Positions 6,455-7,624 of a DNA stretch of 11,143 bases are shown here, piece after piece. The DNA is taken from the NCBI GenBank assembly GCA_964534625.1, contig CAZHRF010000070.1, forward strand, positions 1 to 11,143. The letters run 5' to 3'. The DNA comes from an uncultured archaeon (GTDB lineage: Archaea > Asgardarchaeota > Heimdallarchaeia > Heimdallarchaeales > Heimdallarchaeaceae). The first letter of the stretch is position 1; each line of letters starts with the position of its first letter. Position numbers and translations under genes: made by a program. The notes beneath the pieces were generated by a model, which saw only the letters and a list, made by a program, of their open reading frames with translations, was not told where the DNA came from and made no database searches.

Positions 6455-7564
6455 TTAATTGTCTATTTTTTCTAATAATCCAGCCTCTATAGTAATACCT
6501 GGACCAAATGCTGCAGCAAAAATCTTACCTTGTTGATTGGAATCTTGGCGAATATCCTCTAAAACAAACATTATAGTTACAGAGCTCATATTACCATATT
6601 CTTGCATGATATGATATGATGATTGTAAATCTTTTGGCGTGATATCCAACGCTTCTTCTACTCGCTCTAAAATCGCCTTACCGCCCGGGTGTATGGCCCA
6701 CACATCAATATCTTTTTTTGTTATATTTGCTACAGTAAATAAAGAGTCCATGATCGAGGTAATATTGTCTTTAACTATAGTAGGAACATATTTTGATAAT
6801 TTCATTATAAAACCTGTTTGTCCAATATACCAAGCCATATCCTCTTCACTATCATTAGCAATAGATGTCATAAAATCATGAAGTATGAACTTTGCCTCAT
6901 TAAAATCTCCTTGATGAGCTGATATAATGGCAGCTGACACCCCATCTGCAAAAATGGCATTAGAGATACATTGATCAAGTGTTCTTGTTTGTTGAAAATG
7001 TATAGAACAAAGTTCAACATTAACGACTAATACTCGTGCATTGGGTTCAGAAAGGCAGATATTTCGAGCAAGTTTTAAAGCTGGAAAAGCCCCCTGACAC
7101 CCCATAAATCCTAAATGGTAGCGGTGAATGTGTGGAGAAAGATTAAACTCTCTAACAATGTAGAAATCAAGACCTGGTGCCATAAAACCCGTACAACTGA
7201 CAGTAATAATATGAGTTATTAGTTGTTGATTAAATTCAGCATTGTTGTTAAATAAATTTCTTATGGCTTTTATCGTTAATTCTTTTGCTTTATCGATGTA
7301 TAAGTTATTTCTTTGTTCTGTTGTAGGTTCGGGCTTCAAACTTTTGTTTTTTGGATAGAAGGTATGATTTTCAGGTTTCTTATCGTAATCTTCAATCACA
7401 GTATGTCTCTTTTTGATGTTTGTTCCTTTATAAACTCTATTGAGGAATAATCTGTCTTTCAATGAAGTTGCTGTTAGCTCTTTAATTTTTTTTAAAGCAA
7501 ATTTTTGAGTATAAGATTTGTCTGGTACGACTGTTTCTATTTTGTGTAAGAAGACTCGATTCAA
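6455..7564 (-). CDS. Type III polyketide synthase (chalcone/stilbene synthase superfamily)
   Basis: Complete catalytic triad Cys156 (GFMGCQG), His292 (WAIHPGG) and Asn325 (YGNMSS), plus VSCTG, VELCSIH, AIFADG and AFGPG. TTG start with GGTGAT 7 nt upstream. Confidence 0.96.
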   Translation of the reverse strand: MNRVFLHKIETVVPDKSYTQKFALKKIKELTATSLKDRLFLNRVYKGTNIKKRHTVIEDYDKKPENHTFYPKNKSLKPEPTTEQRNNLYIDKAKELTIKAIRNLFNNNAEFNQQLITHIITVSCTGFMAPGLDFYIVREFNLSPHIHRYHLGFMGCQGAFPALKLARNICLSEPNARVLVVNVELCSIHFQQTRTLDQCISNAIFADGVSAAIISAHQGDFNEAKFILHDFMTSIANDSEEDMAWYIGQTGFIMKLSKYVPTIVKDNITSIMDSLFTVANITKKDIDVWAIHPGGKAILERVEEALDITPKDLQSSYHIMQEYGNMSSVTIMFVLEDIRQDSNQQGKIFAAAFGPGITIEAGLLEKIDN

Positions 7565-7571
7565 TGATTAT

Positions 7572-7577
7572 ATCACC
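7572..7577 (-). promoter_or_regulatory. Archaeal-type Shine-Dalgarno motif (GGTGAT) for the PKS gene
   Basis: Minus strand reads aatGGTGATataatcaTTG. Confidence 0.65.
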
Positions 7578-7607
7578 ATTTTTATATTATTCCATTCATT
7601 TTCTTTC

Positions 7608-7624
7608 TTTATATAAGATTTCCG
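7608..7624 (-). promoter_or_regulatory. Putative BRE/TATA promoter for the PKS gene
   Basis: Minus strand reads CGGAAATC-TTATATAAA, about 45 nt upstream of the TTG start. Confidence 0.5.

Follow-up and report, generated by a model that had tools for sequence, protein, structure and literature searches.

A type III polyketide synthase in Asgard archaea: probable bacterial ancestry and a possible role in surface sulfation

What is a chalcone-synthase-like enzyme doing in an Asgard archaeon, where might it have come from, and with which other proteins does it work? The gene that raises these questions lies in what we call the window, the whole stretch of 11,143 nucleotides analysed here, which is the entire contig C70 (11 kb) of a metagenome-assembled genome from a microbial mat (3.37 Mb, 89.8% complete, 2.6% contaminated). 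We take the questions in turn, beginning with the protein itself.

The enzyme and its host

The type III polyketide synthase (PKS) is encoded at 6455-7564 on the minus strand, in an intact open reading frame of 369 amino acids with a TTG start. The initial annotation called it a full-length chalcone-synthase-like enzyme and let it run to 7624, and indeed both Pfam domains, Chal_sti_synt_N and Chal_sti_synt_C, score over threshold (80.5 and 101.5 bits, cut-off 27), the longer extent simply including the upstream signals. Identity as FabH or DpgA was ruled out, the model scores being far under the curated cut-offs. The top PDB matches by sequence are Steely1 (first, at 154.8 bits), PKS18 and chalcone synthases (CHS), with E about 1e-44, and the structure model (pLDDT 90) gives TM 0.89-0.90 against PKS18, the Ectocarpus PKS and Steely1, all in keeping with a thiolase-type fold. 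A triad of C156, H292 and N325 and a gatekeeper, F205, are unchanged across 20 relatives, and the cavity residues C186, H189, F190 and W245 correspond in sequence alignment to C205, N208, A209 and L266 of PKS18. When CHS sites are mapped through the PKS18 and Steely1 alignments, the plant cavity set of Thr194, Thr197, Gly256 and Phe265 is absent (C186, H189, W245 and M254 stand there instead), and a true plant-type CHS was rejected because all four sites differ. The bulky F190, in place of the PKS18 tunnel residue A209, may shorten the acyl tunnel and limit starter length, and W245, likewise bulky, recalls a tryptophan in the cavity of Azotobacter ArsB, Trp281, which favours resorcinol formation (PMC6274091), a likeness drawn from residue type and not from a direct alignment. 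As judged from sequence and model, then, the protein belongs to the type III PKS family and has an intact catalytic site, for which iterative malonyl-CoA extension and cyclisation are predicted.

How is the gene expressed? The proposed Shine-Dalgarno motif GGTGAT (7572-7577, minus strand), 7 nt upstream of the TTG, has held up well: it complements the genome's own 16S tail, GGATCACCTCC, above chance (shuffle P=0.004), and 6-nt motifs of this kind precede 8.6% of long open reading frames as against 0.5% in a control window. The BRE/TATA-like element, a pattern match at 7610-7623 on the minus strand, is present as described, but its strength is another matter, since it is weak taken alone (shuffle P=0.11; found at 9% of open reading frames), and we regard it as a weak candidate promoter. 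Codon use was said to be like that of the neighbours and is ordinary for the genome, with an adaptation index at the 44th percentile and GC3 at the 66th. Between the PKS and the next gene lies an AT-rich, unstranded intergenic region of 241 bp (7565-7805), common to the PKS and a divergent aryl-sulfate sulfotransferase-like (ASST) gene, and a related species, known from a separate study, has this divergent layout too.

Does the contig truly belong to an Asgard archaeon? It does, as was originally proposed: the genome holds a full-length archaeal 16S gene, the contig is native, the nearest PKS homologs are all Asgard, and the host is a Heimdall-group Asgard archaeon. A contig of 11 kb from a metagenome-assembled genome might always be bacterial, misbinned or chimeric, but here we give that idea next to no credence and reject it, since tetranucleotide composition is typical of the genome (rank 64 of 247), the last bases (11090-11143, plus strand) are the first of an IS200/IS605-family element with about 24 copies in the genome, the first gene has relatives in 28 of 30 family genomes, the PKS region is spanned by a single contig in each of three runs, and the order oxidoreductase-PKS-ASST is found on one contig in the related species, where gene order is thus conserved. 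The IS element marks the contig break point; many of its copies are non-autonomous forms of about 395 bp, some carry tnpB, and they are the cause of many contig breaks in this assembly, while an Rfam search with a diverged short copy gave no match. A joint from 5228 to 11091, supported by 20 bases beside a repeat, was dismissed as an artefact.

The remaining genes are a varied company. The first (212-1024, plus strand) encodes a 270-aa protein without a Pfam or NCBIfam match and is present in four copies in the host genome, that is, with three paralogs. At 1172-1804 (plus strand), 4.65 kb from the PKS and so in agreement with the roughly 4.7 kb first given, is a RING-finger protein of the eukaryote-signature type: its N-terminal part has hydrophobic segments, it carries a zinc ribbon, and the RING domain (PF13639, slightly below cut-off) is C-terminal. 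An ABC-2 permease without its N-terminal part follows at 4508-5210 (minus strand), and because the related species has 2,292 extra bases at the position equivalent to 5193-5210, the host genome has probably lost the 5' part of this transporter locus. Finally, an old-yellow-enzyme flavin oxidoreductase (5274-6389) is convergent with the PKS; we rejected it as a partner, since the other Asgard PKS loci that we compared all lack it.

Bacterial ancestry

The PKS is found in 22 of 400 Asgard genomes: 11 of the 31 in the host's family, one in another family of its class and 10 in a family that contains the Thorarchaeota. In a maximum-likelihood tree of bacterial and Asgard or Asgard-like sequences, 34 of the latter, part of them metagenome proteins assigned by tree position, form one clade (99/97), which also takes in GenBank proteins labelled Thorarchaeota and which, with the root placed on distant bacteria, is nested within bacterial sequences labelled Spirochaetes and Dehalococcoidales, at 50-57% identity. 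The dN/dS ratio is 0.02-0.15 in six pairs, with dS close to saturation in four of them, which points to purifying selection, and the GC content of the gene follows the host group (about 0.33-0.35 in the Heimdall group, 0.43-0.45 in the Thorarchaeota copies). The single clade nested in bacteria, together with this selection, argues for an old transfer from bacteria to Asgard archaea, and we read the history, from these sequences, as one old gain followed by losses, with some transfer among Asgard lineages probably coming after the gain. The earlier suggestion of horizontal acquisition and domestication is thus well supported by the nesting, the selection and the host-like GC.

Two odd sequences deserve mention. 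The sole copy labelled Hodarchaeota (P0006, on a 2.8-kb contig) sits on a short branch inside the Thorarchaeota clade; either it was transferred recently or it has been wrongly binned or named. Another, P0155, is a protein of 4818 aa in which type III PKS-like stretches occur twelve times, mostly at a period of about 791 aa and with near-identical scores; it is probably an assembly artefact, and did not prove to be a plant-type enzyme.

Could the gene bear on the origin of the eukaryotic type III PKSs, as had been proposed? The host's class is close kin of eukaryotes and Steely1 tops the PDB sequence list, which might tempt one to place the origin of type III PKSs in Asgard archaea, or to let eukaryotes inherit the gene from them vertically, yet we consider this extremely improbable. 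The Asgard clade lies within bacteria, its bacterial relatives stand much closer to it than the solved eukaryotic enzymes do, and the gene is confined to those 22 genomes; moreover, the bacterial relatives match eukaryotic enzymes about equally well or better, scoring 151.7 and 152.4 bits against Steely1 (Asgard, 154.8) and 129 and 150 bits against alfalfa CHS (Asgard, 137). Eukaryotic enzymes were compared through alignment scores, outside the tree, and on this indirect, score-based footing an Asgard source of the eukaryotic enzymes is not plausible, and the proposed relevance is not supported.

That Asgard archaea have a type III PKS is already known, a Thorarchaeota copy having been reported from one species, in a tree rooted on that copy and with a figure legend that suggests an Asgard origin (PMC11093982). 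This copy very probably belongs to the clade described here, although our tree contradicts the rooting used there; what differs is that members of the clade now come from two Asgard classes, that the clade falls among bacterial sequences and that it is linked to sulfotransferases. The published suggestion of an Asgard origin for type III PKSs would thereby be removed, and the gene looks like a bacterial gift, patchily kept.

A change of partners

In the nearest bacterial PKS loci methyltransferase genes are present, in many cases together with one for an FAD enzyme (FAD_binding_3), an arrangement known from the hierridin cluster HidABC (PMC8086630), and such clusters hold the direct relatives of the Asgard PKS (50-56% identical, same motifs). 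Unlike them, the Asgard PKS adjoins sulfotransferases in several lineages. Among 52 more distant, non-Asgard-type PKS loci, each over 4 kb, 31 have a methyltransferase match and none has a sulfotransferase or ASST match. The initial annotation remarked that the methyltransferase and FAD partners are not adjacent, and none is nearby in the window; when five PKS-positive Asgard genomes were queried with these partner proteins, weak, partial matches (22-37%) were returned and no orthologs, unlinked ones included.

The best functional clue to the PKS is the adjacent ASST, which the initial annotation did not mention. It is encoded at 7806-10982 (plus strand), divergent from the PKS, and comprises 1058 aa (PF05935): a propeller domain, a long C-terminal extension and, from hydropathy, a C-terminal membrane anchor at about residues 1028-1052. 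The protein is probably extracytoplasmic. Its best PDB match by sequence and by fold is Cpz4 (9KF4), and the E. coli ASST is a fold match too. Residues H184, H246, N248, R264 and H307 are conserved in 10 relatives and resemble the active-site set of the E. coli enzyme (PMC13426309), a correspondence by motif and spacing. Sequence and model both indicate that this is an ASST with an intact predicted catalytic site. ASSTs take aryl sulfate donors only and not PAPS, and for nearly all of them the natural donor is unknown (PMC13426309).

The host genome has two ASST genes only, the second lying on another contig, C41, near the beginning of which an SCP2-fused ASST is followed by a PAPS-type sulfotransferase. 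The first bases of this contig (L069:1-578) hold tnpB together with the distal end of the IS200/IS605 element at which C70 breaks off, in matching orientation, and a related genome, G083, carries its two ASST genes in the order expected from C70-IS-C41. These two facts make the join plausible; it is unproven because other broken IS ends compete for it (about 6 on the left and 7 on the right). No contig from other assemblies was found to bridge C70 and C41, and a protein of C41 has no record elsewhere.

Elsewhere the association is more direct. With the window, five loci link PKS and ASST, and in four Asgard lineages the PKS adjoins an ASST, three of them also having a PAPS-type sulfotransferase in the locus. 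A PKS, a PAPS-type sulfotransferase and two ASSTs occur together, in differing gene orders, in G029 (L002), in G083 (L057), whose two ASST genes both sit in its PKS locus, and in L102 and L109, which represent two genomes of a further lineage whose cluster adjoins an actin gene. These linked PKSs are 54-74% identical to that of the window (G029 74%, the further lineage 54-56%). They include the two earliest Asgard branches, at forks of moderate support, and their grouping as one clade is weakly rejected (AU p=0.043; 3 changes), from which it follows that the link is either ancestral or has arisen repeatedly. In G083 a 75-codon N-terminal PKS fragment (L057:3161-3385, minus strand) lies between its two ASST genes and away from its main PKS, a sign that the cluster has been rearranged internally.

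Surveyed more broadly, the sulfotransferase ortholog is found in 88 of the 400 Asgard genomes, mostly without a PKS, including 53 of 135 in one family where no PKS was found. It is single-copy in nearly all of the 88 and often lies beside the SCP2-fused ASST. Within families it is enriched among PKS carriers (13 of 22; pooled odds ratio about 11, with kin not independent), and this query did not find it in the other 9 carriers, whose genomes are incomplete. A complete sulfotransferase-ASST cluster occurs in G039 and G074, where no PKS was detected, and the sulfation module can therefore probably use other phenols. Beside the PKS of 19 of the 22 surveyed carriers no sulfation-module gene was seen, some of these contigs being short. 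ASST-like genes are expanded in some genomes (L070-L083; G029, G032, G355), with 6-10 copies and tandem arrays. Two other sets of recurrent neighbours, 2-oxoacid oxidoreductase genes in Thorarchaeota and DUF72/IMPDH genes in Heimdall genomes, were rejected as partners because they reflect lineage-specific synteny only.

What is new here, as read from the sequences, is that the Asgard PKS clade goes back to one bacterial origin and that it has switched to sulfotransferase partners. We found no paper on either, nor any on Asgard archaea together with sulfotransferases and PKSs, in a literature search that covered few subscription papers, so that novelty is unproven.

A possible sulfate relay and its rivals

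What might such a set of genes do? We hold it about as probable as not that the PKS makes a phenolic polyketide which, once sulfated, serves as donor for surface-anchored ASSTs, a proposal that leans on sequence, on models and on analogy. A bacterial type III PKS would have entered Asgard archaea once, long ago, lost its methyltransferase and FAD partners, and become tied to a three-gene module of a cytoplasmic PAPS-type sulfotransferase, an SCP2-fused ASST and an ASST of about 1050 aa, both ASSTs being membrane-anchored. Since ASSTs use aryl sulfates and not PAPS, a PAPS enzyme acting on a phenol made by the cell itself would complete the cycle.

The genes for each step are largely in place. 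Malonyl-CoA would come from the host's own acyl-CoA carboxylase, and the acyl starter from acyl-CoA ligases or a type I synthase. Checking for this supply, as first recommended, revealed two carboxylase sets (on C8 and C11), assigned as acyl-CoA carboxylases of either acetyl- or propionyl-CoA preference, and two acyl-CoA ligases. The PKS would condense these units into a short phenolic polyketide (an alkylresorcinol or resorcylate) or an alkylpyrone, and the sulfotransferase, which has faint matches only among solved enzymes, would load the product with sulfate from PAPS, made by an ATP-sulfurylase/APS-kinase fusion (Sat-APS-kinase) encoded on C45; APS kinase was not found in G083, which is 85% complete. 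The aryl sulfate would then reach the outer face, where the ASSTs, whose fold and residues suit the task, could take the sulfate onto a histidine and pass it to acceptors at the surface. Among the genes of the PKS/sulfotransferase/ASST cluster we identified no exporter.

There is a bacterial precedent of sorts. In the caprazamycin pathway Tang et al. (2013) reportedly found a two-step sulfation with a pyrone as the sulfate shuttle. Two-step sulfation by Cpz6, Cpz8 and Cpz4 is cited in PMC12142624, and Cpz4 is described in PMC13426309. As in that trio, a type III PKS is linked to an ASST and, in several Asgard loci, to a sulfotransferase of the PAPS type, and by inference the Asgard PKS would work as Cpz6 does, in a kindred relay devoted to cell-surface sulfation. 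The likeness lies in the Cpz4-ASST match and the gene set; unlike the caprazamycin system, moreover, the host is an archaeon, there are two membrane-anchored ASSTs, one of them SCP2-fused, and no antibiotic cluster was seen. The main objections to a shuttle are that the module is commoner than the PKS (88 against 22 of 400 genomes) and that most PKS copies no longer adjoin it.

The starter supply brings us to a second large enzyme. An operon-like set on C11 (L103:4473-19937) comprises a biotin-ligase-like gene, a carboxyltransferase, a type I fatty-acid or polyketide synthase, a hydrolase, a biotin carrier and a biotin carboxylase, and the synthase, of 3360 aa, has ER-like, KS, AT, second KS-like, ACP, KR, DH and PPTase domains and resembles the Pfa-like 'Type R' clusters (PMC3098273). 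The premise, part of the initial annotation, that such a host would lack ACP-based synthesis cannot therefore stand for this genome. This megasynthase is present in 69 of 400 Asgard genomes, among them 11 of the 12 PKS carriers of the host's class; it is nearly universal in four families of that class, with 0 of 22 in family f5, and gave no match in any of 89 genomes of the Thorarchaeota-holding group, including its 10 PKS carriers, which makes it a likely but not obligatory source of starters. A stand-alone ketosynthase-like gene of 554 aa (C12, L105:7919-9583, plus strand) has no adjoining AT or ACP that we could see. Our searches for Asgard archaea and fatty acid synthase, which covered few subscription papers, found nothing.

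Azotobacter, too, combines a type I fatty-acid synthase with a type III PKS in one genome, as the phenolic-lipid system ArsABCD (PMC6274091, PMC3098273), although the host's synthase is unlinked to its PKS (they lie on separate contigs, and are not neighbours in any locus read) and the Thorarchaeota-group carriers, again unlike Azotobacter, lack a megasynthase match. For the host a fuller version of the shuttle can be drawn, in which an acyl-primed PKS is fed by the ACP-based synthase, the PAPS enzyme loads its product, and the anchored ASSTs sulfate surface glycans, proteins or lipids; we put this forward tentatively, as a possibility that is less likely than its negation.

The rival that survives best, itself rather doubtful in our view, is that the PKS is a stand-alone phenolic-lipid synthase, turning long acyl chains into alkylresorcinols or pyrones that act as envelope, stress or defence lipids, perhaps with the type I synthase handing over the chains in the manner of ArsA and ArsB, where such a hand-over is documented (PMC6274091), and with the sulfotransferase neighbours as mere passengers of the same island. 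Most Asgard copies do stand alone, near DUF72/IMPDH or 2-oxoacid oxidoreductase genes, the megasynthase accompanies nearly all PKSs of the host's class, and acyl-primed enzymes, PKS18 for one, are among the best fold matches. Yet the megasynthase is far more widespread than the PKS, gave no match in any of the 10 PKS-positive Thorarchaeota-group genomes and is its neighbour in no locus read; F190 may limit starter length; and the sulfotransferase link outlasts several rearrangements, including the one that left a PKS fragment between the ASSTs of G083.

A sulfated phenolic lipid might instead be the end product, as a surface sulfolipid or signal, with the SCP2-fused ASST binding or remodelling it and no shuttle at all. 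This shares the evidence of PKS-sulfotransferase-ASST linkage, and the lipid-binding SCP2 domain on one ASST does suggest a hydrophobic substrate, but such a product would need the PAPS enzyme alone, and two ASSTs with intact histidines fit onward transfer better; we think it improbable. Still harder to credit, and in our judgement very unlikely, is the retention of methylated products of the alkylquinone or alkylresorcinol type, made by unlinked host methyltransferases and flavoenzymes, possibly that at 5274-6389: the closest bacterial loci would suggest it, as would the flavin oxidoreductase beside the PKS, but the partner-protein matches in Asgard carriers are weak and partial, and that oxidoreductase is convergent and particular to this arrangement among the loci compared.

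If the acyl-primed shuttle is real, it would provide a defined natural ASST donor in cell-envelope chemistry, and fatty-acid-derived aromatic lipids would be shown in archaea. For the lipid divide, the C11 synthase arguably matters more than the type III PKS itself, and large-scale surface sulfation in Asgard archaea looks like unexplored territory. The PKS, the sulfotransferase, the two ASSTs, the PAPS synthase, the carboxylase and the type I synthase make up a small and nameable set that could be reconstituted in vitro, and that bears both on the identity of the natural ASST sulfate donor and on whether the close archaeal kin of eukaryotes make fatty-acyl-derived lipids.
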